A DNA stretch of 63,999 bases from a virus (IMGVR_UViG_3300030101_003107:1-63999), one strand, 5' to 3'. Numbered from the stretch's first letter, positions 2,221 to 42,308 are shown. Made by a program: numbers and translations. Notes: generated from the letters alone by a model not told the origin.

Positions 2221-3261
2221 TTATACTGTATATTCGTAAACTATTGTTACTGTTAAATCTACGTTTGTTGCAGTTGTATTTTTAACTAATGAAAAACCTA
2301 ACATATCACCTTCATCAAAAACCCAGTTAGCAGCATTAGTACCACCAACTCCGCAAGGTACTATTACAGTAGACTTTGTTGATCCGTCAAATGTTTCTGA
2401 AGCTTGAAAACTACTAGTTTGATGTGAGACAGATGTTCCATCATGATCTCTCCTAGACATGTTTATTGTACAACTACTACCCATAACTTCAGAGCCTCTA
2501 AATAACATCTTAACTATTTTACCGCCATAAGCAGCTACAACTCTAGTATAATATAAACTAGAGCTACTACCATCTGCTAATGAGTTAATAGGAAAATAAT
2601 AGTCTACAGTAGAGCTACCACCATCTAAAGACATGTTGTGATGCGTGCAGCATATCTGCTTTACAACATTAGAGTTTTGTCCCGTTGACAAGCTTACAGC
2701 TCCTGATGATACGCTAAAATTACTAGAACTAAAACTAGCTATACCTTTATTTGAAGTTGTAGCATCTTCTCCAGCTATAGTAATAGTAGTACCACTACTA
2801 CCGCTAGTGTCTATGCCCTCTCCTCCACTAACAAGAAGACTAAGCGCTCCGGAGCTACCTCCAACGTTATTTCCATCGTCTGTTCTAAAATTTACATCTG
2901 TTATATCTCCTGTGTTAGCTGTAAATCCAGAGTCATTATTTAAAGAACTTATGTCTATGCTACCTAACGAAGTAACACCAGTACCACCGTTACCTACAGG
3001 TAAAGTACCGGTAACATCTGCCGCTAAATCAATTTGATTTCTAGTTATTTCTTGTCCTGACAGTGTTATATAATCAGGCGTACCAGCTAAAGTAACAGCA
3101 TCATGTGATGTTGGTACGTTTGCTTTTACTATTTTATTATTTGAATCAAGGCCAAGATTACCACCACTAGCTATTGTGCCAGAGCTTACGTCTTCAAGAA
3201 AAACATCAGACCTAAAGCGAGCTATTAGGTCAACTATATGCTGACCTATAAATTTAAGCAT
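2221..3261 (-). CDS. Putative tail fibre / receptor-binding protein
   Basis: Gly/Ser/Thr-rich; VTGTLPVGNGGTG and ATTSNKGIASF fibre motifs. Start moved to ATG 3261 because 3321 overlaps the upstream gene by 68 nt. Confidence 0.65.
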   Translation of the reverse strand: MLKFIGQHIVDLIARFRSDVFLEDVSSGTIASGGNLGLDSNNKIVKANVPTSHDAVTLAGTPDYITLSGQEITRNQIDLAADVTGTLPVGNGGTGVTSLGSIDISSLNNDSGFTANTGDITDVNFRTDDGNNVGGSSGALSLLVSGGEGIDTSGSSGTTITIAGEDATTSNKGIASFSSSNFSVSSGAVSLSTGQNSNVVKQICCTHHNMSLDGGSSTVDYYFPINSLADGSSSSLYYTRVVAAYGGKIVKMLFRGSEVMGSSCTINMSRRDHDGTSVSHQTSSFQASETFDGSTKSTVIVPCGVGGTNAANWVFDEGDMLGFSLVKNTTATNVDLTVTIVYEYTV

Positions 3262-5064: not shown

Positions 5065-6876
5065 TTATTGTTTTATAATTTTATGTTTTAATGTTCTGCT
5101 ATTTATTTCTATGTGTAAACTATATACACCAGGTGTTAGTGCAGATACATCTATTATATTCACCTGTTTTGCTTCTAACGTAACTTTACCTGTAATGTCA
5201 TATAATTTAACGTTAGCTATTTTATTTATTCTTATAGTTGATTTAACTGGATTAGGATAAACCTCAGTGTTTATTATTAGTTCGTTTAAACTTGTAGGTC
5301 CTGACCACCCGTTTTGACAGTAAGTATACAAATCATCGCAAGTATAATCCCAAGTATTATCACAACAATACGGATCAACATCTATAACCCACTCAAAACA
5401 AGCGTCAGGCACATAGTATATATCACCACTAGCACAACCAGCAGAATAATAACACGAACTATCAGCGATGTTTGCTTCAATATTATAATTAATAGCGGAC
5501 GGATCAGTGCAACCAGGCACTGGATAAATACAAGAATTATTATCAGTGTTTGCAAGAGCATTATAGTTTATAGCCGTGCTATCAGTACAACCATTTATTA
5601 TTTCAATACAGCTACCGTTGTCTGTATTACATGTGTCACAATAATTAAAAGCTGTAGGATCTATACAGCCAAATATAAGCGGTATACAACTACCGTCTTC
5701 TACGTTAGCGTTAGGATTATAGTTAAAAGCATCGTCGTCCATGCAACCTAAAACTACTTCAATACAAGATCCTTCAAGCTCTACATTTGCTTCAGGATTA
5801 TAATTAAAAGCCGTAGAGTCCATACATCCAAGAACTATTAACGTCTCACAAGAGCCATTATCAAAATCTGCTTCTTCATTATATTCAATGTAGTTTGGAT
5901 TCATGCAGCCAGCTATATAGTAGCAGCTGCCGTCATCTGTATTAACGCTGTCATTATAGTTTAAAGCTGTTTCGTCTATACAGCCGTATGTTCTGTCTAT
6001 ACAATTATTGCCACAGTCAGGATCACCAAATATATAAACAAAAGGCGGTATAGGATTTACAAACCCACCTTCTATTTCTATAGCTACATGTTCTTCAGAA
6101 TATATACTATAGCCGCACTGTACGGCTGTAAAGTCTGATTGTTGAGTTATATTAAACTGTACTCTTACAGGCTCTGATATATTTAAGTTAAAAGTAAACG
6201 CAGTATCAAAGCCTTCTTCTAAAGTAAATTGACCTATAAAATTATTGCCCTGATAAACCATTAAGTATGAGCCAGCCCAACCGTTGCCTGCTAAATCTGT
6301 TAACTCTAACGTGTGAGTACAACTATCTACAAACTCATCAATGTTTGCCATAGGATCATAATTGAAAGCTAGTGAGTCTGTACAACCAAATAGCTTTGGT
6401 GTAAAACACATACCTGTGTCTACTGTTGCTTCTGGCAAAAACTCTAAAAAGTCGTCTTGCATACATCCATACACGGGTGGAGGTGGCGCACAATCTTCTA
6501 ATGTAAACCCATGAAAAGCAGCATAACCAAAATCTGCAGAGTCTGGTTGTACTAAAGTATCACCGCAATGAACTACATAATATGACCCATCTTGACCACC
6601 CCATAAACTACCAGCCATACCATCTCCGTACTGATCAGCTATGTTAAATAAATAATCACCGTTAGGTATGCATACTTGAATTACTTGCGGTTGATAATCT
6701 ACTATATCAACATAAGGCCCACCAGTAGCAATAGTGTCTTCTAGCGGTGTAATAATAGCCCAAGAAGTTTCTTCTGGATATTGATCAGGATTAATAATTA
6801 TATTTACGTAAGTACCGTTTGGACATTGCGCAAACGCTATATTAACACATAATAATAATGTAATTAAATATTTCAT
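5065..6876 (-). CDS. Secreted Cys-repeat protein with T9SS type A C-terminal sorting domain
   Basis: Signal peptide MKYLITLLLCVNIAFA|Q; nine GCxDxxAxNY-type repeats; C-terminal VYPNPV...LYDITGK...IDVSALTPGVY...KIIKQ. Confidence 0.9.
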   Translation of the reverse strand: MKYLITLLLCVNIAFAQCPNGTYVNIIINPDQYPEETSWAIITPLEDTIATGGPYVDIVDYQPQVIQVCIPNGDYLFNIADQYGDGMAGSLWGGQDGSYYVVHCGDTLVQPDSADFGYAAFHGFTLEDCAPPPPVYGCMQDDFLEFLPEATVDTGMCFTPKLFGCTDSLAFNYDPMANIDEFVDSCTHTLELTDLAGNGWAGSYLMVYQGNNFIGQFTLEEGFDTAFTFNLNISEPVRVQFNITQQSDFTAVQCGYSIYSEEHVAIEIEGGFVNPIPPFVYIFGDPDCGNNCIDRTYGCIDETALNYNDSVNTDDGSCYYIAGCMNPNYIEYNEEADFDNGSCETLIVLGCMDSTAFNYNPEANVELEGSCIEVVLGCMDDDAFNYNPNANVEDGSCIPLIFGCIDPTAFNYCDTCNTDNGSCIEIINGCTDSTAINYNALANTDNNSCIYPVPGCTDPSAINYNIEANIADSSCYYSAGCASGDIYYVPDACFEWVIDVDPYCCDNTWDYTCDDLYTYCQNGWSGPTSLNELIINTEVYPNPVKSTIRINKIANVKLYDITGKVTLEAKQVNIIDVSALTPGVYSLHIEINSRTLKHKIIKQ

Positions 6877-9385: not shown

Positions 9386-12300
9386 TTAATCGTGAGCGTA
9401 ACATCTTGTTTTAGGCTTGTTTACCATGTTTTTACATCTAGAACTATCACGCTTAATAAAGCTGCATTGATTTTTGTTTTGTTTTTTCTCTTTTTTCTTT
9501 TGCTCTTTTAGCTCATCTTTAGCTTCTTGCTGTGCTTGACGTTTTAAATCTAAGTATCTTACGTATTGATTTTCTTTACCTTTGTTTACAACTACACGCT
9601 CACCAACTTGTAAATCCCAAGCACTCCAACCTAGCGTTAAAAATGCTCTTTGCATTGCTGTGTTTTCTTGATTTAAAGCTTCTCTAATGTTGTCCGTTTT
9701 TCTAAATAACCTATCAAGCGGAACATTAGTAGCAGCTGTTGTAACTTTTGCTGTAGCATCCCAAATAGGATTATTATAATCGAACGTGTCCATGCTACCC
9801 ATTATCTCTCTATTAAATTTATAAGCATTTAATGCACTATAAACTTTTCTAGCTTTTGATCCCATAGGCGGCGAAACTTGCACAGCTTCAACTACTACTT
9901 GACCATAATCAGCCCTAGACTTTCTTTCAGACTCAGAAATAAATCTCATTATAGTGTTTTTAATAGTTGCAACTGCAGCGCCTGCTACACCAGAGCCTCT
10001 TAGTATTGTATCAAGCATACTATTTGCTATTCTTGTAGCTCTTTGGTCTAGCGCGTCGTCTTCTTCGTCGTCAAAGCTTAAAGCAAATATAGCTGATTGC
10101 AAGGCAGAGAATATAACATTTTGTATAGCGCCGTAATATAATATTCTTGACACGTTACTTCTCCAGTCTCCACGATTATTAATTAAATCTCTACTAGCTT
10201 TTTTAATTAAACGATTATATTGCATAGGTGTATTAGCGAAAGCTAATATAAGACGACCTAATGGACTAGCTTGCTGTTGTGATATACGATCAGGTCTAGC
10301 CGACTGCTGAGTTTCTTGAGCTATTTCTTGAAAATCTAAAAAAGCTTTTTCTTCTGCAGCTTTTTTATTCATACCTTGCTTCGTATATGTTTCAACTCTA
10401 TTTCTATAAAACGTAGATCCACCAGAAGCAATAGCAAAACTATCAGCTATTTGTGTAGGTAAAAAACCTTTTTTAAGCAAATACGCAAGCGCAGCTTTAG
10501 CTTTGTTCTGAGCGCCTGCTACAGCATTAGCAAGTTCAGCTTCATTTACATTTATTTGTAAACCTGCTCGTCTAGCTTTTAAAAAGTCGGAGTTAAATAA
10601 CGTTGAAAAGTCTGACCAATATTGTTTTTGATTAGCAAAAGCTTTACCAGCTTTAAATATATTGTTATCGTCAAAGTTTATAAAGTTAACTGTAGACAAA
10701 GTTTGTAGTACAGCTGATCTTGCGTTAAAGAACATTATAGCGCCAACAGATCCGTTAACCCAGTTTGTCCAAGCTTGGCCATAAGTTCTACCTGAAGATC
10801 TATTTGTACCGTTTTCCATACGATATAATGAATCTTCTAAAGCGCTTCTAAATCTAGAGCCATATATAGCTTCTATTTTATTCATATTTTCAGTAGAAAA
10901 TATAATATTTTTATTTTCTATAAACTCTGCTAAATATTGTTTTCTACCTATTTTGTTTACAATGTTTTCTAAGTCAGAAGCTATACTTTCTACACTCCAG
11001 TTTTCACTTGGCTCTATCCAACCTTTATCTCTTTTTGATACAATGCTTAAAGCATCTGCAAATGTTTTTAAGTCTTGATCTGTGTTAACAACGTTTTTTA
11101 AATAATTTAAATCTCTTTTAGATATACCTGGAACTTCAAAGCCTGCTTTATCAAATAAATAAACTCTTATAGCATTATCAAAAGTAAAACCAGTATCTTT
11201 TTCTATTAACTTACCTAATCTTTTTTTAACGTTAGGTATTTCTTTTCTAAGTAGTTTATAATCGTCTAATATACTCATACGAGCTTCACTCATTTCACGA
11301 TCAGCTCTACCAAACGGATCTAGTAAAGCTTTTTTCATAAACTCCATATCAGCATCACCTTGTTTGCCTTTGCCGTAAAAGTCATATAATAAGCCCGCAA
11401 AGTCTTCAGCTGACGGTGGTACAAAAAATCTATATCTACCTATGTTTTTACCACGCTTTTGACCAACAACTCTTGAAAATATTTTTTCAGCTGCAACACC
11501 TTTTGTTCGCTCGATCATTTTGTTAAACTCAGAGCTCATGTCTTTGCTAAAGTTTATTCTTGCTTGTACGGATTTACCTTTAACATCTAGCTGATCAAAT
11601 ACATGTTTAACAGCTTCTACATTAGGTAAAGCATCGTCTACAAAGTACATATCATTATATCCCTCTTGATATTTTTCTAAAAACCAAGCTGCTTTAGCAT
11701 CGCCTTCGCTTTTACCAAGTCCAGTTATATTTTTTAAAGGTATATTAATACCTTGGCTTTTTAACCACTTGTGTATAGGTTCAGCAGCTTCTTGCATACG
11801 AGCTGTTAAAACAAACACATTACTAGGACCATACTTTTTTATTTGGTTTTTCATCTTCTGAAGTAGTGGCCCTTCTTTACCTCCTCTTACGTTTGCAAAA
11901 TCAGAAAAGTCAAATTCATAACCATCAGCCGCTAACTTAGGTCCATCAATAGGCCATTTGTCAGAAGGTATTTTAACTGTTTCGCCATCTTTAGTTGCTG
12001 TAACAAAGTTTTCACCGTCTATAATTAACGTTTCGTCAAAGTCAAAAGTAGACATACCTTTTGAGTCTTTGCTATAAGCTAGCACAGGTCTAACGCTAGA
12101 TATGTTTTGACTAATGCTAGAGTTTTGTTTTATTTCAGCATTTGGCTTAATTTTGTTTCTAGTTTGTAAAAAAGTATCTAAGTTGTTTTTAGCTTGAGAA
12201 GCTGTAATATCTCCATTTAAAAACTGATACAAAAGATTTTGTTGAGTGCTAATAGTTGATGCATCGCTATGCAAGCTAACGTCAACGCCTAAACCAAACT

Positions 12301-15300
12301 CTTCTGCTATAGTTTCACCTCTAGCATTTATTAAGTAGTTAGGATTTATTCCACCATCGTTAGCGTTTACTAATGGATTAAAATATCTTATCCACTTAGA
12401 TTTTAATCCTAACAATATATCAAGATGATATTCTAGCGGCGGTGCTTGAACAAAATTAAACTTAACGCCATTAATTTCACCTTTAAGCTTTTTATCGTAA
12501 GATAAAGGCAAAGATCCTTGAGCATAGTTTTCAAAAGCGCCATCAATATACAACTCTAAGTTGCCTTGCAAAGCTCTATTAAATAAAAATTTAGCAAAGT
12601 CGCTAGCTGGTAAAGTGTGTTCTTCTACGTTTTTTTCATTAAGAGTATTAGTAAATTCTAATGTTGATATAACTCTAGCAAAATGACCCATGTTCTGAGA
12701 AGTAGAAGCAAACATAGTAGCAAAATAAGGTATAGTCTCAGGTTGAGCTTGCATTATCTCTTGTATTTTAAGCCATACCTTTTTAGCGCCTATTATTGAT
12801 GATTCGTGATACTCAGAGTCTTTTAGTTTTTCCGCAACCGTTTTACCAGTTGATTTGCCGTATTTACCTACCGATGAAACAGCTGCAGTTATATCTGGAT
12901 CAGAAGGGGCAAACTTAGCTCCTTCAACAGAGCTTAATAAATCTTGTTTACTTGTAAAAGCAAAGTTTCTTTTTCTACCATTAGCTCCAGCTCCAGCAAA
13001 AGTTCCTACAGTTAACATTTCTATTGGAAAGTTAGGTGCTATGGTATTTTTTACAAAGTCTCTATAATTTTGAAGATCTGCGTCGTTATTAACTATGTCT
13101 ATAGGTTGAACATCTTGAGTAGCGGCAGCAACAACGCTTTTCCAAGCTTTGTTTTCTTGTCGAAGCATTTTGTTTAAGTCTGTATCTTCTTTAGAAAACA
13201 TATAGTTTGCCATACCGTCAGATATGCTAGTTAGCTCTGGATTTTGTCTTCTTATTTCTTGATTAGTTATAACTTTACCAAGTAAATCTGCAAGTGCTAT
13301 AACTCTAGCCGATGTATTTCTATTACGTGTTGGCTTACCGTCTATAATATCTATAAGCTCTAATAACTCTGAGTCTTTAATGTTTGTTCTTTTGACCTGA
13401 GTGCGCAAACCTGCTTTAGTTTTAGCTCTAGAGTCTCTTTTATTATAAAGTGTCTCTAATACAGTCTTAGGCACTCCTGTTGCTTTACCTGATGAATCAA
13501 AGCCTTGCGGTAAAGCTTGTATTACTAAAGCGGCATTAGCTTTAAACCATCTTTGCGCTGAAGCTACTTCTGCGGCTGTAAGATTTGCTTTGCTCTTAAT
13601 TTTATCAGGTGATATACCTAACAATTTACCAATAGTATTTCTAGCGGCATTTGGCACGCTCTTAAAATTAGACAATGTAGAAAACTTAGTTTCTTGTTCG
13701 TTTACCTCTGTAGTAACTTCATTTTGTATGTTTAACCTATCAGCTAATACTATATCTTTAGTTTTTCTTTCTGGCTGTTGCTCTACAGTTTCTTCAGCCG
13801 CAACACCTCTAGCCTCTGTTACATCATCTGTAAACTCTTCGCCTAACACTCTACGTGAAGCCTCAATAGCTCTAGCAGGTAAAAACTTATTTATGTAAGC
13901 AGCTAATGGTACGCCTGACTCAGGATTATATTTTTGTATAAGATCAAATATACCTCTTTCACCAGTGTTTATTTCATCAGTTAATAATTGTCTATCAAAG
14001 TTAGGCGCTTCAGATCTTCTCTGCACAAGTCTATTTACTATAGGTGCAAACTGATCTATAATACTCATAGCACCACCTACACCTTGATCTTGGTATATTT
14101 GTTGTACTCTATCAGAGGCTTCTTTTGAAAACTGTTGAACATCACCTGGTTTTATATCAGTAGGTAGTATGTCACCTTTAATTCCTTTAGCAGCTGATTT
14201 AATTAAATCTTTGTTTATATTGCCTGACTCTACAGACTCTACATAGTCTCTAAAAAAGTTAAATACATCTTGATTAGTGTTAAACTTATATTCTAAACCA
14301 GTTGTATTTTTAGTAAATCGCTTGACAACATCTTTTAATCTACTAAATAAGTTATCGTTAAATTTAATATCACCATTTTGAACTGCTTCAGCTGCTAGTG
14401 TAAATACTTCTTCGCTTTTACCTTCAGCTTCTGTATATTGATCTAATCTTCTTTTAAAATCAGTACCTTCTATAGCTATATTGTTTTCATCAAAGCTTTC
14501 TAATAAAGCATCACCAAATGCTTTTCTTGCGGCTTGATTACCTTGCAAAGTAGCAAAAAGCAAAGCATGTCCAAACTCATGTGTAAGTGTAGTCATAACG
14601 CCGTCTCTTAGCTCAGACTCTTGATTTATAAATATTTCTAAACCACCTTTACCGTCTTGTCTTATAGCACCATATCTAGTAGACTCACCTTTTAATATTT
14701 CTTCTCTTTTTCTAAACTGTTCGCTTTGAGATCGTTTTTCTTTTCTTGCTTCTGCTATTTCTTCTTGTGTAGAACTAGGATCGTTTATTATTTCGTCCAT
14801 AGCTTGAATAGCACCTATATCAAACGAAGCTTGTTCATCGTCTCTTCTCCAGTTAACAAAGTCATTAGAATTACCTTTACGTATATCTACATTAACGCCT
14901 TGTTGTTTTAAAGCTTCGGCTTGCAGCGACACATTTTCAAATAACTTTTCTCTACGAGAGTTTTGAGCGCTTTCTATTAAGTTAAAGTTATCTTGATTAC
15001 GTTTATTTATTTTATCTAAAATTAACTCTTTGTCTTTATCAGTTTTAGCTCTTCTTAGTTTATTTTTTTGCTTGTGAATAGCATCTAAGTTTTGAGCATA
15101 AGTTTTAAGTTGAGAATTACTTAAAGAGTTAAAAGTTCTATATAAGCTTTTTTTATTAGCTACTTGCGCGTTGTTAAGATCTTTTATTTCCTCTTGTATT
15201 CCAGCTTTTTCAGACTCTTTAGCTGTTTCTAACTGTTTTACTTTAGCATCAATTTGCGTGGCTATATCAAATTGTATATTTTTAAACTGTTGTGGCGCTA

Positions 15301-16765
15301 AATAATTATATACTTGTTCTACTTCTTTTGGTTTTGTAGCAACACTAGTTACTGATGCAGCAGGACCACCTAGCAAAGCACCTATACCAGCATCATGTAT
15401 AACATTTGTAAAAAACTCTTTACCACCTATCTCGTCGTCAAATATAAACATATCTCCAAGCTGCTGCAAAGTTTTATTCGCTCCTTCTGTAGCACCTTCT
15501 GTTACAAAACCACCACCAAACTTTGAAATAGCGTTAGTAGTATAACTTCTAATATAGTCTGTAACAGCTTTTTCGCTAGCACCTACTCTTCTTAATCCTA
15601 CTACATCTCTAAATAATCTAGCTCCCAAATATTCTGTACCCCACTCAAACAAACCATCTGTACTACTAGTTAAATATAACTCTCCAATAGTAGCGTCTGG
15701 TCTTTCTTTTAAGTTTTGTTCAAAACTACTACCAGCTGCAGAAGTACCTAAAGCTATACTACCATACATTGGAAAACCAATTGCTAAAGCCAAAGAAGGT
15801 ATGTTAGATAAAGCTTGCTCAGAAGCTACTTTAGCAGCGTTAGGATAATCACCTTTTTTTATAAGATCAATATACGTCATGGTGTTGCCGTCTTCATCTC
15901 TAACGTTAGTCATGTGACTTCTTAGTTTAGCTGAAGTGTATTTTAGCTGTTCTGTAGGTATATCTGGATATGTTCTTTGTACAATCTCTAGTGGTAAACC
16001 TGTTGATTGAGCTATTAAAGGTTTTAAGCCATAATTGTTTACAAAATCAACCATACCAGCGGTTAAATCTAGTGTTACTGCTTTTACACCAGACAAATAA
16101 GGAATTAAAGCTTTAGGAATGTTTGAGTTTGCTGATAGTTTAATTTTTTCGGCTTCTGCTATAGCGTCTTGAAGATCATAACCTGTTTTTTTATAAATCT
16201 CTTTACGCTCGTTTAAATCTAGTTGTCTAGCTTCAAGATCTTTGCCAGCTTCAGCTGCTTTAAAAAAATTATCTCTAAGCGTATAATATTCGTCTAAAGT
16301 TTCTTGAGGAAAGTTTGCAGGAAGTTTTTTATTTTCATCTAATTGCAAAGCTATGTTTTGATTATAAAAACCATCAACAACATCTTTAGCATTATTTAAT
16401 TTTTCAGTGTATTCTTCTATTGTTTTGCTTAGCTCTCTTTGTTGAACTTCTAAAGGCACTATATCAACTTCAGGTAAAGTTACGCCTTTTATAGTATCGT
16501 CTTCTACTCTTGCTCCGGGCACAACGTCAAAACCTGAAGCTTGAACTTCTGCTATAGTTTCAGGATTATTTGTGTAAGTAGGAAACTCCGATAAAGATTT
16601 TGCCGAACTGGATGCCGTACTTTCTGGCTCCGCAGGGGCATCCACTTTCTGGGGAGCTTGTTCTTTTTTTGTTTCGACGTAGTTTGTAATAAAGCCTTTT
16701 ATTTCATCATCAGACTTTCCAGCATCGATTAGTTTTTGAATTTCTAATTCTAACTCTTCGTTCAT
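9386..16765 (-). CDS. Giant virion/ejection polyvalent protein (zincin + sigma70-like + HAD + helical C-terminus + CCCH finger)
   Basis: Third gene of the post-tail ejection trio; HEFGH at aa 729; sigma region-2-like GIFDLIQKYNPESGVPLAAYI; HAD FDFDETL..LTAR..FVDD; terminal C-x9-C-x10-C-x2-H. Confidence 0.85.
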   Translation of the reverse strand: MNEELELEIQKLIDAGKSDDEIKGFITNYVETKKEQAPQKVDAPAEPESTASSSAKSLSEFPTYTNNPETIAEVQASGFDVVPGARVEDDTIKGVTLPEVDIVPLEVQQRELSKTIEEYTEKLNNAKDVVDGFYNQNIALQLDENKKLPANFPQETLDEYYTLRDNFFKAAEAGKDLEARQLDLNERKEIYKKTGYDLQDAIAEAEKIKLSANSNIPKALIPYLSGVKAVTLDLTAGMVDFVNNYGLKPLIAQSTGLPLEIVQRTYPDIPTEQLKYTSAKLRSHMTNVRDEDGNTMTYIDLIKKGDYPNAAKVASEQALSNIPSLALAIGFPMYGSIALGTSAAGSSFEQNLKERPDATIGELYLTSSTDGLFEWGTEYLGARLFRDVVGLRRVGASEKAVTDYIRSYTTNAISKFGGGFVTEGATEGANKTLQQLGDMFIFDDEIGGKEFFTNVIHDAGIGALLGGPAASVTSVATKPKEVEQVYNYLAPQQFKNIQFDIATQIDAKVKQLETAKESEKAGIQEEIKDLNNAQVANKKSLYRTFNSLSNSQLKTYAQNLDAIHKQKNKLRRAKTDKDKELILDKINKRNQDNFNLIESAQNSRREKLFENVSLQAEALKQQGVNVDIRKGNSNDFVNWRRDDEQASFDIGAIQAMDEIINDPSSTQEEIAEARKEKRSQSEQFRKREEILKGESTRYGAIRQDGKGGLEIFINQESELRDGVMTTLTHEFGHALLFATLQGNQAARKAFGDALLESFDENNIAIEGTDFKRRLDQYTEAEGKSEEVFTLAAEAVQNGDIKFNDNLFSRLKDVVKRFTKNTTGLEYKFNTNQDVFNFFRDYVESVESGNINKDLIKSAAKGIKGDILPTDIKPGDVQQFSKEASDRVQQIYQDQGVGGAMSIIDQFAPIVNRLVQRRSEAPNFDRQLLTDEINTGERGIFDLIQKYNPESGVPLAAYINKFLPARAIEASRRVLGEEFTDDVTEARGVAAEETVEQQPERKTKDIVLADRLNIQNEVTTEVNEQETKFSTLSNFKSVPNAARNTIGKLLGISPDKIKSKANLTAAEVASAQRWFKANAALVIQALPQGFDSSGKATGVPKTVLETLYNKRDSRAKTKAGLRTQVKRTNIKDSELLELIDIIDGKPTRNRNTSARVIALADLLGKVITNQEIRRQNPELTSISDGMANYMFSKEDTDLNKMLRQENKAWKSVVAAATQDVQPIDIVNNDADLQNYRDFVKNTIAPNFPIEMLTVGTFAGAGANGRKRNFAFTSKQDLLSSVEGAKFAPSDPDITAAVSSVGKYGKSTGKTVAEKLKDSEYHESSIIGAKKVWLKIQEIMQAQPETIPYFATMFASTSQNMGHFARVISTLEFTNTLNEKNVEEHTLPASDFAKFLFNRALQGNLELYIDGAFENYAQGSLPLSYDKKLKGEINGVKFNFVQAPPLEYHLDILLGLKSKWIRYFNPLVNANDGGINPNYLINARGETIAEEFGLGVDVSLHSDASTISTQQNLLYQFLNGDITASQAKNNLDTFLQTRNKIKPNAEIKQNSSISQNISSVRPVLAYSKDSKGMSTFDFDETLIIDGENFVTATKDGETVKIPSDKWPIDGPKLAADGYEFDFSDFANVRGGKEGPLLQKMKNQIKKYGPSNVFVLTARMQEAAEPIHKWLKSQGINIPLKNITGLGKSEGDAKAAWFLEKYQEGYNDMYFVDDALPNVEAVKHVFDQLDVKGKSVQARINFSKDMSSEFNKMIERTKGVAAEKIFSRVVGQKRGKNIGRYRFFVPPSAEDFAGLLYDFYGKGKQGDADMEFMKKALLDPFGRADREMSEARMSILDDYKLLRKEIPNVKKRLGKLIEKDTGFTFDNAIRVYLFDKAGFEVPGISKRDLNYLKNVVNTDQDLKTFADALSIVSKRDKGWIEPSENWSVESIASDLENIVNKIGRKQYLAEFIENKNIIFSTENMNKIEAIYGSRFRSALEDSLYRMENGTNRSSGRTYGQAWTNWVNGSVGAIMFFNARSAVLQTLSTVNFINFDDNNIFKAGKAFANQKQYWSDFSTLFNSDFLKARRAGLQINVNEAELANAVAGAQNKAKAALAYLLKKGFLPTQIADSFAIASGGSTFYRNRVETYTKQGMNKKAAEEKAFLDFQEIAQETQQSARPDRISQQQASPLGRLILAFANTPMQYNRLIKKASRDLINNRGDWRSNVSRILYYGAIQNVIFSALQSAIFALSFDDEEDDALDQRATRIANSMLDTILRGSGVAGAAVATIKNTIMRFISESERKSRADYGQVVVEAVQVSPPMGSKARKVYSALNAYKFNREIMGSMDTFDYNNPIWDATAKVTTAATNVPLDRLFRKTDNIREALNQENTAMQRAFLTLGWSAWDLQVGERVVVNKGKENQYVRYLDLKRQAQQEAKDELKEQKKKEKKQNKNQCSFIKRDSSRCKNMVNKPKTRCYAHD

Positions 16766-19161: not shown

Positions 19162-22100
19162 CTATTTGCTACTTTCAACAGCGTTTAGCGCTGCAGCAAA
19201 TAACTCAGATTTATTTTCAAAATCATTATTTCTCCAAACACATCTTGCATAGTAGCCTTTAACTCCAGAGTGTTCAACAGGATTTTGTGTTAATACAAGC
19301 AATATTGAGCTTATATCAACGTTATAATCATCTACAATAGGGCCTAATGCTTCAAATAGCTCAGGTGTAGATACATTTGTTGTTATTGACGTAGAATCAA
19401 AACTTACCACGCTTCCAAGATTTACAAATTGACCTACAGTTTCTGATGGAGGAATAACAGTTGGATTATCACCTACGGTAGTACGCATTACGCGCACGTT
19501 AACACCTTCTTGAATAACAGCCATGTTTATAATTCCTAAATCAAATGATATTGTAAAACCTAGGCTACCATCACTATTTTCTACAATGCTTGTTGGTATA
19601 CCTAAAGGAGCTATATATTTTTGAAAATCTTCACTGTCTGTAGATAAAGTATCACCTTGTTTATCGTCTATATTTACATGCATTAAATTATTATGCCATT
19701 TGTTTTCTTTATTCTTAAAGTTTATTGACATACCCTGCTCAAGATCTGTTGTAATTCTACTTATCCACCATCCATCTTTGTTTAAATTAGTAGATAACAC
19801 GCCGTCGTTATTGTTAGATATAATTCTAGCTTGAGTACCTTCATAGTTAGTATAAGTAAAGTCTTTTACAGTGCCAGGCATTTCGTTATAAACTAAAGCA
19901 ATTCTTGGCTCTTGACTACTAGGCTCTGATTGAAAATAACCTTCATAAAAGCCGTATTTAGCTACTACGTTGTCATGATGATAATGCTCGCTGCTAATAC
20001 TAAAATATTGATTTTTTAAACTATATCCTTGAGCATCTTTATAGTATGTTCTAAAAGAAGTCCAAGCGTTTAAGCTTTCGTCCCAAGCAATAGTCAAATA
20101 GCCAAAAATTTCATCTTCTATATCTGTAAGATCAAAGTTTCTACAAGATAAAAGATATTCGTTTTTATCAATATCATAACTTCCAAATATATAACTATTT
20201 TGATCTCTAGCGTCTGATAGTTGGTTTTTAAAATAAGAGTCCATACCTTGATCAGATATTATAGTCATACCATCTTTTGATAATCTTATAACAACACCAC
20301 GTTTGGCATCGGTAAAGTAAGATCTAAAACCATATTGAGCAAAAGACTCAGGATTATTTGATATACCATATTCACCGTCAAAAGCAACAGATTGACCTAA
20401 AACTTTATCAGTAGCTAATAAATCAGGATTACCATCAGCTTTAAATATTGCATCTTTTTGAGAAAGAACTTTTAAAACTTTATCTTCACAAAGAACTATT
20501 AAATCATTTGCTCTAGAGTATAGTTTTTGTATAAATCCGTGATCTGGATTAAATCTTTTAGTTATACCTAATGCTTCTATAAACTGATTAGTCTCGTTAA
20601 ATCCACTATAAGAATTATATATACCTGAAAATATTAAACCTTCACCAACCTTAATTTCAGCATAATCTTCATATATACTAGATGCCTTAACACCTTTTTG
20701 TATTCTAGCTCCATTAAAAGAGTTTTTAACAGTAGATATTTCTATACCGTTTCCAAAGCAGAAACAATTATAATAAGGTAAAGCTATAGGTGTAACTACA
20801 TCGTTTACTAAACTAAAGTTTGATAAATGCGTGTGTCTTTTTACAAGAATAGTATCACTATTAACAACGCTTTCTGCTACGGTAACGTATACGTGCTCTC
20901 CAACATTTAATCTTCCGCCTCTATGCTCTTGTATTTTTAAGACTAGTTGATCTGGATTAGCAGGAACAGTTATGGTTACAGGTTGACTTAAAGTTATTGT
21001 AGTATACAAAGCATCATTAATATTATGTCTACCAACATTAGTTGATACAGATGTTACTGTAATTGGAGTAAGATCAATATCGTCAAGAATACTAACCCCA
21101 CCATCGCCATCATTATCACTTGTATATAGTAGAGGAAAAGTAGTATCACCTACTTGAACAACGCTATTTAAACCTAAAGCGCCGCCTGGGCCTGGTATTA
21201 AAGCAGTATAATAATAAGCTTCTACCATACGACCAACTTTAATAAACTGTTCGTCAGTTTCATCGTCTAATACTATAGGATATGCTTGAGAAGCTTCATA
21301 ATATAAGTCTGTATCATAATTAGGTTTTGGCAATGTTTCAAATACACCTTGTGTTTTAGCTGTGTTCGGGCCAGGTAACGGGCCTACGTCATTGTTCACT
21401 ACTAATGGTCTATCAGTTTTTACATAAACAAAAAACTTACCTTCAAAAACGTTTGGATCATCGTCTAAAGCATCAATTAAAGCTTCAGGCACTTCATTTC
21501 TTATTCTTTGAACTTCATATTCAAGATTAAGATTGTCTGACTCATAGTTGTTTGTTACATTAGACAAATCAGGATCTGGTTGTCCAGATTTTCTATGAGC
21601 TCTTTTTTGTATTAGTATATCGCCTTCTTGAACTTTGTTTCTATGATCAGAACTAAATATTAAAACACTATTAGTTTTTTCTGTTAAGCTACTTGCTTGA
21701 GCTTCAACAGAAGCGTCATCTTCACCGTCAACATTTATAAAATGTCTAATTTCTTCTAATGGTAAAACATTATAATCTAAAGAAGTATCTTTAACAAAAA
21801 ATTTATATGACTTAGCCCAAGTTGGATGTGGGTTTTTAACTATTACAGATATTCTTTGTGTTTTTTTAGAGTCTTCTGGACTTACTTTTATAATAGCTTG
21901 TCTATTAGTTAAAACAGGTGTTTCTCTACCAAACTCATCTCTATAAACAATACCAACTTGATAAGATCTATAAGATTTAATAGACTCCTGTGGTACGCCA
22001 AAGTTAGGGTTTGTTCCAGCGAAAGCTTCTTCAAAAACTTCAATAGCTCCATCGTCTGAGCTAGCACCTATAATTATTGGGTTACCATCAGGTCCAAGTA

Positions 22101-25100
22101 TTTCATTTATTTCTTGATTAACATAGGTGTAAAGTCCTACTTCAAGATTAACTTTTATATCAGAAGAAGATATAATTTCGTTATTAAAATCAAGTACTGT
22201 TTCTACTAAGTTGTAGTCTTTTAAGTAATTACCATAAACAACTCTATTAGCAGTAACTTCTTGTGCTTTAGCTGATTTTGGCACAGAGTCAAAAGGTCTT
22301 AATATTTGATTAGGATCTATTGTTAAACCTAAAGTATTAGCATTAAAAGGATGTAAGCCTGTATAAGATCCGTTTGCTGGTAAATTATATTCACCATCTC
22401 TAAAATCATATTTTTTTACAGCATATATATTATTTGCTTCTTCACTTTTAACTACCAACTCTACAGCTTTTACATCATGTGGTAAATTTTTTGGTGTCCA
22501 GTCTATTAATCTTAAATCTTTTATTTCATTAATTAAAGATATGTAATAGTTTGGCCAATCTATTTTTTGATTTAAAGTTCTCCAAATAACTGTAGTAAAA
22601 GGCGCAAAGCCAGAGTATTCGTTGTCTTCGTATTGATACCTGTAAGAAAATCTTAACATAGCTTCTCGTAAAGACTTTTCATCAGCTAATCTGCCTGCGC
22701 TGCTACCTTCATATTGAGAAGCTAAACTAACAGACCAAACTTGAGGAAGAGGTGGACCATAAAATTTTGGATTACCTTGAGAGTCAACTAGCAAACCATC
22801 GCGGCCCCAATTTTGATTAGTAGTCCAATAAGGTGATCTTCTGCCTTTGTAATCTTTAGGTAACATTGCTGCGTTTTTAGTACTGTCACCTTCTCCAATA
22901 ATAATAGGGCCTTCATCGCCTGGTCTTACATACTTATTGCTTAAATCAACTCTTAACGATGGATCTAAAGGATCTTTAGCGTTGTTTTCATCTATTTGAA
23001 TAGTAATAATATATTGGCTAATAAAATGCTCTGTAGAGAAAAAACTTGGCGGTAAGTCTACTACTGTACCGTCATCTAATACTATTTCTTCTCCACCAGG
23101 ATCAGTGCCATCAATTATAGTTTGATCAACTAACCCATCATTTAAAAATATAAATTTATCTTTTAAATCAGTATAAACATTACCAAGGTTATCAGTGAAA
23201 CCTACATTGTTAGGAACACCATTTATAACTGCACCAGCTCCTGCTGGGCCTTCAGGCCGCATGTTTACATGCTCTATTTTTGTTATTGTAGCTTTTACTA
23301 AATCAGCAAACCCGTCGTGTCTTCTGCCTGCAAACCGTGTACTATTTAAAAAATTAGCTCCTAGTGGATTTGCAGGGCTATTGAAACTAAGCTCTTGAGT
23401 ATCTCCAAAGTCTTGCCCACCTTGATTGTCTATTGTCCAAAGATCTTCATCTACAAAACCTCCTGTTTCTTCTAAAACCGAAGCAGGTGTGAAAAAGCTA
23501 TTGTCGTCTTCATCTGTATAATAAACATCAGTATATCTACCAACTGCGTTACTTCTTCTAGTATTACCTTGACCTTCTAATACAATTTTGTCACCAACAC
23601 TAAATCCATGAGGTTGAACTACAAATCTTCCAGGCCCTGTAGGTCTATATAAATTATTTTCGTTTAAATCAATTCTACCATTATGCACAAAATCAGCCAT
23701 TGGACCATCGTCAGGATCTCCACCTAAACCCCAATATTCGCTAATAGCAGCTAAATTTTGCGAAGGGCCTGATATATTAGCTTGTGAAAAAAGACCACCT
23801 AAATGATAAGCTTTAGCTATACCGTGCTGATTTGCATAAATAGGTGGGGCAACATCACCATCAAGAAGATACCCTCCAGGCATTTGATTTGTGTAGTGTA
23901 TAACATCACCTTCTGATCCAGCGTTACCACCAAAAGAACTGCCAGGACTAAAAGATACTAGCACGTTTTCATTTACAGAGTTAGCACCTACACCTCTAGT
24001 ACCACCTGCGCCTGAATAATTTTCCCAATAAAACGGCTCTAACGCTTGATTAAAGACACCATCATCTTCAGTAATTCCTGAAGCCATACGCATTGGACCA
24101 ACTGGAATAATATGTCCATCAGTTGGATCATTAAAAAAACCAAAAAGTGGTCCAAGCTCTTGGTAAGAGTCCATACCAGCGTTTAAATAATTTTTAAACA
24201 ATGGGTAAGGCGCTGATGGTTGTGAGTTTGCTTGTACATTTTCAGCTATAGCAGTTGGAAAAACTAAAGACTCTATAGTATATCCGCGTGGATCGTCTTG
24301 ATTAAAAATGTTAGCTGGAACACCAAAAAATCCATTGCCAGCTCCCATTGGATCTAGCGCGCCAGTTCCTGGGGCAGCAGTACCGTAAATACTTCCTCTA
24401 GATGCTTTTACATAAGCGCCCCAAGATAAAGTGTCAGGAATATCAAGAGTCATGCTGTTTCTAAAGTCCATAGCTTGGTTGCCATTTACATCAGCATACG
24501 GAATAAAAGATCTGAAGTTATAATAAGTATCAGGGCCTAAGCCTACTAACGGCTCACCCAGTCCATCGTTAGTAATTAATCCACCGGCTTCGTTATAAAA
24601 ACCAGCTTCGTTTAAAAATGCAACTGCAAACTGTAATGTTTTACCACTTGCGTGGTTTGGATGTATAGGAAAAGGATGCGTCATAACACCTTTAGTTGGA
24701 CCAACTGTTTTAACGTCTGAGTCGCCAACCACAGCACCCACATCAGTTAACACTTTTAAATGCTCTTCTGGATTTGGTCTTATAACAGTACAGTGAGACT
24801 CTATAGTTCCACCTAGCCCTGTATTTATAGCATTGTTTGCTATAACAGCGTTATCGTGATACCCGTTAAACTGCCAACCAGGAACACCTTGAAAGCCTAA
24901 ATTGTTATCAGAGTTTTCTCTTAATAATCTAGTATGAAAAAGTCTTCTATCTGTAAGCCAGTCTGGATATACCGACTGTTGATCAGATAAAGTACCTACT
25001 TTAGATCTATTTATTTGTATTTTTTTAGGTTCGTTTTTATTATCTGTAAAAAATATTAAACCATCAAATACATTTATACCTGTTATATATCTTGAGTAAT

Positions 25101-26709
25101 CAAAATCTAATATTCTTTTAGATACAAAAGCAAAGAAAAAATTATCCTCATCAAGAGCTATGTCATCAGGAATAACTACATTATCTGCAAATCGATTAAA
25201 ATCATCTTTTATGTATACTCTGTAGTTAACTCTATCAACATAGTCAACATAAAAAGCATCTATTAAAGTATTTATACCAGCACCTTCAGTTAAAGAATTA
25301 GAAACAGCAAAATCAGTGCCTACTATTGTGTCATACTGAAGAATACGCATGTCCTCTCTAATGTCTAAGTCACGCATATTCAAACCATCGTCAGGAAGTT
25401 GTATGTATGTTCCTAATTCATTCATGGGCTGGCCTATGAAAACAGCTGGAGTTCTTATTTCATAAACATCGTTAAAAACTAAATCCATGTCTCCATGGCC
25501 ATTGTTTTCTTCTGATATTCGCTGCATAGCTCTATTAGGCTCATACTCGTATATAGCGTCAGCTCTAACAACAATGCCTCTAGCGCCAAAAGATTCTGGA
25601 TCAAGATCTTCTATAGCATCAATACCACCGCTAAAAAATTGTCGAGTATCTTCTCTAAATTGATCTATATGAGTAAAAGGATCGTGTTCACCCGTCAAAT
25701 TATCTGTTAAGTGATTCCATGTTCCAGGAATTGCAGTAATTAAAGCTTGATCTACAGTACCTCTATTAGGACCTGTTAACTCAATAAGATTACCATCTTC
25801 TCCAGCGGTAGGTTGAATTATTGTTACAGAGCTTCCGTCTAATTCAACGTTAACTCCTATGCTACTTAGAGCATTATAAAAGTTTGTTGCTTTTCCTTCT
25901 GCTGAAGCTGCTGAAGCTACATTTATAGTTACTAGCTCTCCTGCTTCATCAAAAATATGTCCATTAGGAAATGATATGTTAGTATAACTATAAGGAAAAA
26001 GCGGATTAGCTTGTGCTTCAGTTGTAAAAGCGCCATAAACAATAGTTATTTGACTAAAACCGCTAGATGTTGCGTTGTTTAACGTAAACCTCATTTGAGG
26101 ACATCCACCAATTGTTCCTGCGTCCCAAGGTCCTGAGCCATCAATTTGATAATCTGGATTACCTATTGCGGCTTCCCACCAGTTGCTGCTAAGTTGACTA
26201 CCAAAATCACTTGGACCTACTGGTCCTTCGTTTATCCAGCCAGGTTCGTTTGATTCAATATTTTCGTTATGTAATCCATATCTACGCGCAACTGCGTAAT
26301 CATAAAGAGGGCTTATGCCTACGTAATTATTAAAATTAATTGTAAATCTTGCTCTTTCACCAAAGCCTTCACCTTCTAGTCTAAAGGCATTAACATAAGC
26401 TGAGTCTTTAACGAAATGATAAGCATAATCATTTGTTCTATCTACAGCTGTACCTACTACTCTAGGTTGAGTAAAACCTACTCTTCTAGGGCCAAAAGTG
26501 TTTAGCTCTCCATCTCCTTGATGTCTCCATCTATCTTGAGCAATAACTTTAGTATTTGCTCTAACAGTTTCTAACGAACCTTCGTTTCCTTCTGAAGAAC
26601 TACTAACCCGTATGTTTATAGCTTCACGATATAAACCTTGACCTACTAGCCTCTCATCAAGGTCAAGATTCATTCCACCTTTAATAAAAGTTCTTTTTAA
26701 TTCAGCCAT
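19162..26709 (-). CDS. Tail stabilization / nozzle (muzzle-type) protein with large insertions
   Basis: GGMNLDLDERL, FFTDNKNEPKKI, RFSYRYQYEDNEYS, NRVVYGNY, RSYQVGIVYRDEFGRETPVL, YGISNNPESFA, FKNKENKW: motifs recalled for the P22-gp10-like tail protein of Bacteroidota podoviruses and crAss-like phages. Confidence 0.8.
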   Translation of the reverse strand: MAELKRTFIKGGMNLDLDERLVGQGLYREAINIRVSSSSEGNEGSLETVRANTKVIAQDRWRHQGDGELNTFGPRRVGFTQPRVVGTAVDRTNDYAYHFVKDSAYVNAFRLEGEGFGERARFTINFNNYVGISPLYDYAVARRYGLHNENIESNEPGWINEGPVGPSDFGSQLSSNWWEAAIGNPDYQIDGSGPWDAGTIGGCPQMRFTLNNATSSGFSQITIVYGAFTTEAQANPLFPYSYTNISFPNGHIFDEAGELVTINVASAASAEGKATNFYNALSSIGVNVELDGSSVTIIQPTAGEDGNLIELTGPNRGTVDQALITAIPGTWNHLTDNLTGEHDPFTHIDQFREDTRQFFSGGIDAIEDLDPESFGARGIVVRADAIYEYEPNRAMQRISEENNGHGDMDLVFNDVYEIRTPAVFIGQPMNELGTYIQLPDDGLNMRDLDIREDMRILQYDTIVGTDFAVSNSLTEGAGINTLIDAFYVDYVDRVNYRVYIKDDFNRFADNVVIPDDIALDEDNFFFAFVSKRILDFDYSRYITGINVFDGLIFFTDNKNEPKKIQINRSKVGTLSDQQSVYPDWLTDRRLFHTRLLRENSDNNLGFQGVPGWQFNGYHDNAVIANNAINTGLGGTIESHCTVIRPNPEEHLKVLTDVGAVVGDSDVKTVGPTKGVMTHPFPIHPNHASGKTLQFAVAFLNEAGFYNEAGGLITNDGLGEPLVGLGPDTYYNFRSFIPYADVNGNQAMDFRNSMTLDIPDTLSWGAYVKASRGSIYGTAAPGTGALDPMGAGNGFFGVPANIFNQDDPRGYTIESLVFPTAIAENVQANSQPSAPYPLFKNYLNAGMDSYQELGPLFGFFNDPTDGHIIPVGPMRMASGITEDDGVFNQALEPFYWENYSGAGGTRGVGANSVNENVLVSFSPGSSFGGNAGSEGDVIHYTNQMPGGYLLDGDVAPPIYANQHGIAKAYHLGGLFSQANISGPSQNLAAISEYWGLGGDPDDGPMADFVHNGRIDLNENNLYRPTGPGRFVVQPHGFSVGDKIVLEGQGNTRRSNAVGRYTDVYYTDEDDNSFFTPASVLEETGGFVDEDLWTIDNQGGQDFGDTQELSFNSPANPLGANFLNSTRFAGRRHDGFADLVKATITKIEHVNMRPEGPAGAGAVINGVPNNVGFTDNLGNVYTDLKDKFIFLNDGLVDQTIIDGTDPGGEEIVLDDGTVVDLPPSFFSTEHFISQYIITIQIDENNAKDPLDPSLRVDLSNKYVRPGDEGPIIIGEGDSTKNAAMLPKDYKGRRSPYWTTNQNWGRDGLLVDSQGNPKFYGPPLPQVWSVSLASQYEGSSAGRLADEKSLREAMLRFSYRYQYEDNEYSGFAPFTTVIWRTLNQKIDWPNYYISLINEIKDLRLIDWTPKNLPHDVKAVELVVKSEEANNIYAVKKYDFRDGEYNLPANGSYTGLHPFNANTLGLTIDPNQILRPFDSVPKSAKAQEVTANRVVYGNYLKDYNLVETVLDFNNEIISSSDIKVNLEVGLYTYVNQEINEILGPDGNPIIIGASSDDGAIEVFEEAFAGTNPNFGVPQESIKSYRSYQVGIVYRDEFGRETPVLTNRQAIIKVSPEDSKKTQRISVIVKNPHPTWAKSYKFFVKDTSLDYNVLPLEEIRHFINVDGEDDASVEAQASSLTEKTNSVLIFSSDHRNKVQEGDILIQKRAHRKSGQPDPDLSNVTNNYESDNLNLEYEVQRIRNEVPEALIDALDDDPNVFEGKFFVYVKTDRPLVVNNDVGPLPGPNTAKTQGVFETLPKPNYDTDLYYEASQAYPIVLDDETDEQFIKVGRMVEAYYYTALIPGPGGALGLNSVVQVGDTTFPLLYTSDNDGDGGVSILDDIDLTPITVTSVSTNVGRHNINDALYTTITLSQPVTITVPANPDQLVLKIQEHRGGRLNVGEHVYVTVAESVVNSDTILVKRHTHLSNFSLVNDVVTPIALPYYNCFCFGNGIEISTVKNSFNGARIQKGVKASSIYEDYAEIKVGEGLIFSGIYNSYSGFNETNQFIEALGITKRFNPDHGFIQKLYSRANDLIVLCEDKVLKVLSQKDAIFKADGNPDLLATDKVLGQSVAFDGEYGISNNPESFAQYGFRSYFTDAKRGVVIRLSKDGMTIISDQGMDSYFKNQLSDARDQNSYIFGSYDIDKNEYLLSCRNFDLTDIEDEIFGYLTIAWDESLNAWTSFRTYYKDAQGYSLKNQYFSISSEHYHHDNVVAKYGFYEGYFQSEPSSQEPRIALVYNEMPGTVKDFTYTNYEGTQARIISNNNDGVLSTNLNKDGWWISRITTDLEQGMSINFKNKENKWHNNLMHVNIDDKQGDTLSTDSEDFQKYIAPLGIPTSIVENSDGSLGFTISFDLGIINMAVIQEGVNVRVMRTTVGDNPTVIPPSETVGQFVNLGSVVSFDSTSITTNVSTPELFEALGPIVDDYNVDISSILLVLTQNPVEHSGVKGYYARCVWRNNDFENKSELFAAALNAVESSK

Positions 26710-42050: not shown

Positions 42051-42308
42051 TTAATCTACTAGTACAATATCACCTGCTTTGATAACAAAATAAAGCTTAC
42101 CTTCAAATTCTACTCCGTGACCAGCGTGTTTATCATACCAGACAACATCACCATCTTTTATAAATTCTATTAAATTACCAGTTGATATAACTTTACCTTT
42201 AGAATATCTAACGTCTTCGTCAGCATCTTCTTTAATAATTAAGCCAGCAACTTTCTTTTCTGTTTGTTTTATCTTATCGATAACTACATAATAATTAACT
42301 GCCTTCAT
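42051..42308 (-). CDS. groES: Co-chaperonin GroES
   Basis: KVAGLII mobile loop, KGKVISTG, IKDGDVVWY, GDIV; adjacent to groEL. Confidence 0.9.
   Translation of the reverse strand: MKAVNYYVVIDKIKQTEKKVAGLIIKEDADEDVRYSKGKVISTGNLIEFIKDGDVVWYDKHAGHGVEFEGKLYFVIKAGDIVLVD

Follow-up and report, generated by a model that had tools for sequence, protein, structure and literature searches.

The 63,999-nt viral sequence IMGVR_UViG_3300030101_003107 (hereafter the window) carries on its minus strand, at 9386–16765, a gene for a 2459-residue protein. We read this giant protein as a processed polyvalent cargo protein on a chassis of zincin, HAD and C-terminal domains, in which one swappable module resembles sigma domain 2 and is probably an RNA polymerase (RNAP)-docking takeover effector, and we put the probability of this reading at roughly 0.5. 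The bearer would be a marine flavobacterial podophage with crass-type tail parts, and its modular "polyvalent" cargo protein would be packed in the virion and ejected together with the DNA. The modules, joined by flexible linkers bearing a hydrophobic-Ser-Lys motif, would be cut at these x-S-K sites, most simply by the protein's own zincin with Phe or Tyr at P1′. About five pieces would be released, among them a ~35-kDa fragment (residues, aa, 879–1189) in which a sigma-2-like fold is followed by a novel domain and which would dock on the β′ clamp helices of the host RNAP. The β′ clamp helices are the docking site of every sigma factor; since the fragment most likely docks there, we read it as an injected transcription-takeover effector.

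An earlier note on this DNA had described the open reading frame (ORF) as 2459 aa long with HEFGH at aa 729, and both are confirmed; DFDET lies at aa 1575, and hydrophobic windows are found near aa 322 and aa 2213. The tetrapeptide [FY]SK[ED] to which the note had drawn attention occurs exactly four times (aa 879, 1190, 1564 and 1739) versus 0.14 expected by composition, i.e., a Poisson P(≥4) of 1.5e-5 for a motif defined post hoc. The protein begins with a variable N-terminal region (aa 1–695, 14681–16765; all coordinates of its parts are on the minus strand) with Gly/Ala-rich hydrophobic stretches at about aa 320–350 (15716–15808). A zincin-like metallopeptidase module follows (aa 696–878, 14132–14680), in which HEFGH (aa 729–733, 14567–14581) is accompanied by a later Glu. 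Junction motif 1, FSKE (aa 879–882, 14120–14131), precedes the sigma domain-2-like fold (aa 884–977, 13835–14116) and a compact α/β domain termed SC (aa 1000–1189, 13199–13768). Junction motif 2, FSKE (aa 1190–1193, 13187–13198), stands after a conserved GMSxVM and leads into module U (aa 1194–1563, 12077–13186), which only part of the family has. Junction motif 3, YSKD (aa 1564–1567, 12065–12076), is followed by a HAD-type phosphatase-like module (aa 1568–1738, 11552–12064), and junction motif 4, FSKD (aa 1739–1742, 11540–11551), by a universal C-terminal core (aa 1743–2400, 9566–11539) with a hydrophobic helix near aa 2213. The last 59 residues (aa 2401–2459, 9386–9565 including the stop codon) form a Lys-rich tail with a Cys/His cluster and a weak zf-primase match (E 0.045).

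Homologues of the giant protein form a phage-only family of metagenomic sources throughout, with 1566 near-length matches, and an exhaustive HMMER search with aa 720–1760 returned at least 1671 cluster representatives at 50% identity. Among the 120 best matches, the HAD module plus C core (aa 1561–2400) was covered in all 120, the zincin and sigma-like (S) region in about 96–105, module U in 66–98 and the N-terminus in 10–55. The modules are combined in many ways, and some members carry Zeta_toxin/AAA_33, SLT or DUF5763 domains. As judged from these alignments, the family chassis is a zincin, a HAD module and a C-terminal domain of ~660 aa, with variable modules before and between them. The polyprotein-like build proposed earlier is borne out to the extent that the sequences point to a modular molecule in which the zincin is near-universal and the junction motifs are conserved. 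Indeed, the family shows the defining trait of polyvalent proteins, i.e., many unrelated domains in an architecture that varies between homologues.

The junction motif lies at points of module exchange. In query coordinates, the boundaries of high-scoring segment pairs cluster at aa 861–900 (35 ends), 1181–1200 (44 ends) and 1541–1580 (71 starts), so that three of the four motif copies stand where modules are exchanged. The claim that the motif marks every internal boundary therefore holds for aa 879, 1190 and 1564, which coincide with homology breakpoints, but not for aa 1739, where no breakpoint is seen because the HAD and C domains always travel together. Conservation was counted over 261 homologues. 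[FY]SK was found at site 1739 in 189 of 250 aligned homologues and at site 1190 in 101 of 153, past which (…GMSxVMFSK) the sequences diverge completely; the corresponding counts were 87/215 at site 1564 and 53/180 at site 879, where SK preceded by any residue, mostly F, M or L, occurred in 111 of the 180. Over 256 sites in 94 distinct giants, AGY and TCN codons are both used for the motif Ser, which argues for selection on the peptide and not for a DNA recombination joint. An AlphaFold2 (AF2) model of aa 696–1192 was built from 66 sequences, with a mean predicted local distance difference test (pLDDT) score of 79.5 and with model residues 184–282 corresponding to aa 879–977. In this model and in a separate one of aa 1000–1192 (below), pLDDT is low around aa 1190 and just before aa 879 (<50 at residues 178–184 of the larger model), suggesting that these residues behave as linkers. 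The pattern in sequences and model fits a role of the x-S-K motif as a cleavage site, and a hydrophobic P1′ residue is favoured by many gluzincins.

The candidate protease is well conserved. HExxH is retained in 97 of 97 aligned homologues, and among giants whose zincin BLAST can detect, 183 of 185 have some HExxH, as do 43 of the 52 in which it cannot, several of the exceptions being truncated. A nearly invariant Glu (E91) lies 57 residues past the first His of HExxH. In the AF2 model, this part forms a β-hairpin followed by helices, an order of secondary structure that fits a zincin. Single family members gave weak Pfam matches to ATLF (0.0023), Peptidase_M78 (0.02) and DUF5700 (0.069).

Packaging would be consistent with the location of the gene. 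The minus-strand structural genes run in the order terminase (phrog_6681), portal (phrog_6547), a phrog_13704 virion protein, two further "virion structural" PHROGs, a 2515-aa muzzle-like virion protein (19162–26709, minus strand), two small ORFs and the giant gene, so that TerL, portal, capsid-type and muzzle-like genes all lie upstream of the latter on the same strand. The muzzle-like protein matches Pfam crAss_MUZ (9.5e-10, 37.7 bits, cut-off 27) and phrog_14478 (1e-93). In PhiCrAss001, according to the part of PMC10172136 available, the genes following the muzzle gene encode virion proteins detected by mass spectrometry (MS) and thought to be ejected, namely the cargo proteins gp45 and gp46 and the RNAP-associated giants gp47, gp49 and gp50. 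The giant gene stands after the muzzle gene as these cargo genes do, and the ejection-protein position claimed for it thus fits an ejected cargo protein. From this synteny, the giant protein is probably packaged in the virion. The crassvirus muzzle match is confined to the first ~136 aa of the 2515-aa protein, the remainder matching phrog_14478 and containing a Ca-site-like DNDGDG.

The earlier note had placed a sigma70-like segment at aa 879–1189 and had made its case depend on a sigma-2 fold at aa ~895–975. The model of aa 884–977 has that fold, with VIA Z scores of 8.8–9.2. In an unbiased search with VIA over 48,161 chains, the best match was 8x6g_H, Staphylococcus aureus SigB in the open complex (Z 8.8, rmsd 2.8 Å over 86 residues, model 189–282). 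The first 25 rows were all chains of sigma factors or sigma-dependent transcription complexes, the first unrelated chain ranking 26th with Z 5.7. The top rows included ECF sigmas, sigma-70, sigma-S, sigma-28, pro-sigma-K (8vjl_B, Z 7.3) and, from the T4 late-transcription complex, 7d7d_F (Z 7.4), which we take to be T4 gp55. When VIA was applied to Foldseek candidates (pdb_via), Escherichia coli sigma70 (6ca0_F) reached Z 9.2 with an rmsd of 2.8 Å over 90 residues, and all 50 rows listed were sigma. Foldseek alone, run with the model of aa 696–1192, gave nothing at E ≤ 0.001, and its weak list consisted mostly of sigma chains. At the sequence level, hhalign aligned S with the alignment of the free-standing sigma factor of the window in the register of regions 2.1–2.2 (P 0.013 and 0.004).

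Jackhmmer detected the sigma-2-like domain in 281 of 376 giants, and hhalign added 21 at a probability of at least 50%; 74 of the 376 had no domain detectable in this way. In L025, a diverged sigma-2-like domain was recognised by hhalign. A second sequence type (NRGL..LL..YNP.RN...MGYLN; alignment A2, columns ~1080–1290) replaces the sigma-2-like part in L001, L002, L004, L019–L021 and L043. In these proteins the equivalent of aa 1000–1189 stays similar (75% identical in L001, for example), which indicates that the two halves of the module evolve or are exchanged separately.

The sigma-like portion of aa 879–1189 is therefore limited to aa ~884–977, and the part of the earlier claim that does not stand concerns aa 1000–1192, a separate domain with no known fold match. 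Modelled alone from 77 sequences, this SC domain is a compact α/β structure (AF2 pLDDT 89.3, predicted template modelling score 0.87). Its best VIA-wide Z was 3.0 with no sigma among the 50 best rows, from which a very diverged relative could escape; Foldseek found no match in the PDB at E ≤ 0.001 and only a family member in BFVD. The proposal that a complete sigma factor is released is thus not upheld, as the C-terminal ~190 aa of the fragment match neither sigma-3 nor sigma-4 (best Z 3.0).

Docking on the polymerase was predicted by folding S (alignment A3) with residues 1–400 of Flavobacterium johnsoniae β′, alongside three controls. The score was 0.64 versus 0.17 for the best control. Of 80 solved complexes 58 pass the mark, as do 2 of 110 mismatched pairs; with the custom alignment used here, these counts apply only approximately. 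Agreement between the runs was at least 36% of contacts, with a partner pLDDT of no less than 69. In the predicted interface, β′ 281–319, which we take to be the approximate position of the clamp coiled-coil, meets S residues 43–66 and 94–99, both of which hhalign matches to sigma regions 2.1–2.2. On this prediction, aa 884–977 would most likely dock on the β′ clamp helices of the host RNAP.

Several observations weigh against the reading given at the outset, some of them of a general kind, others concerning cleavage or the sigma-like fold. Blastn and tblastn searches of 50,697 phage records, a set from which close records may be missing, found no homologue of the giant protein, and hence none in a cultured phage there. 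Relatives have giant genes in the same slot, such as a 3694-aa gene in Elemovirus (L169, NC_055854.1, 48851–59935), annotated "structural protein", and a 3859-aa gene with two HExxH in MW202828 (L168, MW202828.1, 741–12320). These same-slot giants of cultured or freshwater relatives contain one or two HExxH and have no detectable similarity to the giant protein; by sequence comparison, the slot is conserved and its content replaced among relatives. As to cleavage, conservation of the motif is partial, particularly at sites 879 and 1564, some subfamilies have no copy or a single one, and the zincin has no junction motif on its N-terminal side. These facts suit an alternative in which the protein stays uncleaved, as one tethered multi-domain ejection protein whose x-S-K motifs are linker or docking elements, e.g., for packaging or a partner protein. 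The virion RNAP of phage N4 offers a parallel, having zincin-like domains and yet being described as a full-length virion protein. Free-standing S genes were not found either; most of the 50 short matches come from contigs no longer than a few kb and are for this reason probably fragments. Several roles of such metallopeptidases, including attack on host proteins, are considered possible in the available text of PMC5512222. We regard an uncleaved protein as rather unlikely nonetheless, given that four junctions with no homology to one another share a tripeptide that is conserved at the protein level, sits in disordered linkers at module-exchange points and travels with a near-universal peptidase in cis.

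As to the sigma-like fold, VIA itself rates Z scores of 8–9 as "middling" where a domain is helical. No sigma match came from HMMER-level searches: the first 25 of the 34 Pfam families listed for 66 family members at E ≤ 0.1 included no Sigma70 family. A PDB profile search with the S alignment returned no sigma, and the hhalign probabilities for S versus the free sigma are just 3–8%, which is weak evidence at the sequence level. The domain lies at a fixed distance from the zincin (median 159 aa past HExxH in 300 proteins) and could accordingly be an accessory helical part of the peptidase. It also diverges fast, while the β′ clamp helices, its supposed target, are conserved. Moreover, sigma–β′ complexes have already been solved, so that the docking pass may reflect likeness, not binding. 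On this account the resemblance to sigma-2 would be a common helical arrangement, and the domain, having no function at RNAP, would be an accessory zincin part or a structural spacer. We find this doubtful. A chance likeness would have to explain an unbiased search headed by 25 sigma-related rows, an alignment that spans the whole domain at 2.8 Å, an hhalign match that, weak as it is, falls in the correct register, and a predicted interface between sigma region 2.2-equivalent residues and the β′ coiled-coil that none of the three controls approached (all ≤0.17). An accessory zincin part would have to be reconciled with the disordered linker, junction motif and homology breakpoint that lie between the domain and the zincin.

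The fragment could also act in a more specific way, and here the rest of the genome bears on the question. The earlier note held that the phage has no RNAP of its own, and none was detected in this 64-kb genome, which CheckV rates 99% complete. The catalytic loop D.D[GA]D was absent from the giant ORF and, apart from Ca-site-like occurrences, from the large ORFs. Searches of the genome with PF00623 and PF00940 gave no match, the latter being uninformative as its control matched nowhere. The DFDET of the giant protein is HAD motif I and not the DFDxD/DxDGD loop of crAss-like virion RNAPs (vRNAPs).

The seven TACGA-N7-YGGATAAT sites reported earlier are indeed present. All are exact matches on the plus strand, starting at 45337, 45828, 46301, 46659, 48409, 49779 and 51271 (45337–51290), versus 0.11 expected from shuffles, and the extended promoter-like consensus is (A/T)TACAAAnTAAATACGA-N7-YGGATAATA. 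The free sigma gene reported at 53128 likewise proves to be one: the ORF at 53128–53880 (plus strand) encodes a sigma-70-family factor by both Pfam (Sigma70_r4 2.2e-7, Sigma70_r2 3.2e-4) and PHROG 351 (2.6e-26). It is conserved, with 56–74% identity in four of five records tested and 72–98% identity among the best 120 database matches.

The note had combined these elements into a two-step scheme, in which the released aa 879–1189 are a true injected sigma for the seven early promoters and the free sigma then drives later genes. Several findings agree with it, beginning with the sigma-2 fold of the model and the predicted clamp-helix docking, with the limit given above that the score may reflect likeness. 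The motif is strongly over-represented and restricted to the early plus-strand region. A crude scan with the Bacteroidota consensus TTTG-N17–23-TAnnTTTG found no convincing full promoter of this type upstream of the early genes, and no RNAP was detected in the nearly complete genome. As the last motif copy lies upstream of the free sigma gene, the latter may itself depend on these promoters. There is also the precedent of T4 gp55, which acts as a sigma with just a sigma-2-like domain. In its boldest form, a polymerase-less phage would ship in its virion a sigma-like factor cut from the polyprotein by the zincin in cis, whose sigma-2 domain, along with a new DNA-reading domain (aa 1000–1189) in place of sigma-4, would program host core RNAP for the first transcripts; this is a long shot in our estimation.

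The distribution of the motif in relatives speaks against such a link. Those with a canonical S have five or six exact copies. G003, whose sigma-2-like part is of a different sequence type, has six exact copies as well, and G007, whose sigma-2-like part is invisible to BLAST and HMMER and was found by hhalign (97.1%) and jackhmmer (2.6e-6), has nine. G006 also has six exact copies, and no sigma-2-like domain was detected in it by jackhmmer, hhalign (0.8%) or a six-frame hidden Markov model search of the whole record. G011 and G014, with no detected sigma-2-like domain, have one exact plus three near-exact copies and one exact plus two near-exact copies, respectively. No copies were seen in G012, G013 and G015, records that are 71–86% complete. 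The motif is thus unchanged where the sigma-2-like part is swapped, diverged or undetectable, and the co-variation expected from the proposed link between segment and promoters does not appear. A domain that swaps, diverges or vanishes while the motif stays fixed is unlikely to read it; this argument falls short of a refutation, as an undetectably diverged domain or a replacement module is possible. Further points against an injected sigma are the 74 of 376 giants with no detectable sigma-2-like domain, the C-terminal half of the fragment that matches no sigma-3 or sigma-4 structure, and the conservation of the free sigma across relatives. In phage phi14:2, middle promoters with −35/−10-like blocks are used by the primary-sigma holoenzyme, according to the available part of 10.1101/2020.03.07.982082, which makes host RNAP alone a live alternative. 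The motif is more probably read by a group-conserved factor such as the free sigma (ORF 53128), or by the host holoenzyme. Consequently, we consider the injected-sigma scheme quite improbable; as a takeover effector, the fragment more likely competes with or modifies the host holoenzyme than serves as the TACGA-N7-YGGATAAT specificity factor. If true, the scheme would provide the first case of an injected sigma and add a third mode of starting infection to virion RNAPs and host-sigma promoters, and the variable sigma-2-like sequences would reflect adaptation to different hosts, not promoters.

Some further features of the motif were observed. The conserved left half TAAATACGA and the Y-GG that stands 7 nt beyond it have a layout like that of promoters of T7-class single-subunit RNAPs; no T7-like RNAP was detected in the window. 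The idea, derived from this layout, that the conserved core is a hidden polymerase was dropped, as no polymerase motif or profile match was found, with the limit given above for PF00940. At sites 46659 and 51271, an ATG overlaps or directly adjoins the 3′ side of the GGATAAT block. The plus-strand stretch 45337–46678 holds four motif copies ~360–490 nt apart with only tiny ORFs (32–76 aa), and from its sequence it looks like an array of strong early promoters for very small genes or non-coding RNAs. In G009 (the record of L072, 67 kb), all five motif copies read TACAA instead of TACGA. This record contains the free sigma gene twice, near both ends (2276–3025 and 65785–66534), probably owing to terminal redundancy of the assembly.

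The remaining modules of the giant protein are less readily assigned. The HAD phosphatase that had been recognised is supported by motifs I (DxDxT), II (T), III (K) and IV (DD) in order, and its residues D12, D14, T16, T91, K128, D147 and D148 are invariant in 58 sequences. With Pfam at E ≤ 1, DUF2608 was matched by all 58 members (best E 3.9e-6), NIF by 12, HAD by 11 and Hydrolase by 1. The DUF2608 match of the window protein itself (20.6 bits) is below the cut-off of 22.6; no profile match of the module exceeded a curated threshold, and a PDB profile search gave none. Profile searches of module U and the C core against the PDB returned nothing meaningful, and an Atlas search of the C core found only its own family, with DUF5763 in 11–27% of members. 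The tail (aa 2401–2459) contains a C-x10-C-x11-C-x2-H cluster, and the C-termini of some family members carry DUF5763. The whole 2459-aa protein gave only noise against Pfam and PHROGs, with no polyvalent-protein (LPD) domain, and phmmer found no match to it in the PDB.

The first ~50–60 nt of the window are repeated near its end (1–60 and 63940–63999; the repeat takes in the first 50 nt but not the first 100). The assembly is therefore probably circular or terminally redundant, with a complete genome of ~63.9 kb. The closest cultured phages by portal (40–49% identity) infect Flavobacterium, Cellulophaga, Maribacter and Tenacibaculum. In the structural region, a 603-aa ORF (5065–6876, minus strand) ends in a type IX secretion sorting domain (Por_Secre_tail, 2.1e-11), a Bacteroidota-specific signal that is odd for a phage and also indicates a Bacteroidota host. 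The phage further encodes a GroEL-like chaperonin (42295–43863, minus strand; phrog_5725, 2.6e-135), and its Elemovirus relative is annotated with GroES.

The giant protein can be compared with four kinds of known system. The polyvalent proteins of Iyer et al. (2017), for which processing by zincin metallopeptidases was predicted, are likewise giant multi-domain proteins of mobile elements with a zincin-like HExxH hub and a domain complement that varies between homologues. They too are predicted to be delivered with DNA and processed by a peptidase, and "jump-starting transcription" is among the themes named in the available text (PMC5512222). The giant protein differs in having no detected Pfam LPD domain or other Pfam family and in its family-specific HAD plus C-terminal core; the word "sigma" does not occur in the main text of PMC5512222, as far as available, and a recurring junction tripeptide was not found there. 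The crassvirus cargo and vRNAP giants (PhiCrAss001 gp45–gp50, phi14:2 gp66) similarly lie in the structural operon soon after a muzzle-type gene and exceed 250 kDa. According to the parts of PMC10172136 and 10.1101/2020.03.07.982082 available, MS detects those proteins in virions, and they are presumed to be ejected and to start early transcription. The giant protein differs in that it lacks the DFDxD/DxDGD motif, matches neither PDB 6vr4 nor any phage record, would have a sigma-like RNAP-binding part in place of a polymerase, and is encoded by a genome of 64 kb instead of about 100 kb.

With the sigma-70 family, such as T4 gp55 and pro-sigma-K, the giant protein shares the sigma-2 fold of its model and the predicted β′ clamp-helix contact. 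Pro-sigma-K is cut by the metalloprotease SpoIVFB, and release of the fragment from its precursor by a metalloprotease would parallel this. Unlike these factors, the giant has no listed Sigma70_r2, r3 or r4 Pfam match and no sigma-4 match, its promoter specificity is unsupported by the relatives, and its sigma-like domain is embedded in a structural-operon protein of 2459 aa, where a domain of 190 aa with no known fold match comes next. T4 Alt, an ADP-ribosyltransferase packed in the head, is cut by the prohead protease and modifies the RNAP α subunit on entry. It is thus alike in concept, being virion-borne, proteolytically matured and active on the host RNAP before phage gene expression; in the giant protein, the proposed mode is instead non-enzymatic sigma mimicry, with a protease proposed to act in cis. 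No description of a sigma-like cargo module or an injected sigma was found in the literature searched, a body outside which subscription journals and supplements lay, nor in the available parts of PMC5512222 and PMC7824862.

With at least 1671 clusters at 50% identity from Tara, JGI and ENA marine data, this is a very large family, and it belongs to phages of Flavobacteriia, major degraders of algal carbon; none of its domains is annotated, and the phage collection searched contains no cultured member of it. The hydrophobic-Ser-Lys motif at the junctions is a concrete candidate for a processing code of polyvalent proteins, whose predicted cleavage is given no site in the available text of PMC5512222. 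If the fragment binds core RNAP, the immediate-early effectors of host takeover would gain a new class, the fragment would be a naturally occurring minimal mimic of sigma whose partner domain is also new, and the phage may seize host transcription while entering the cell.

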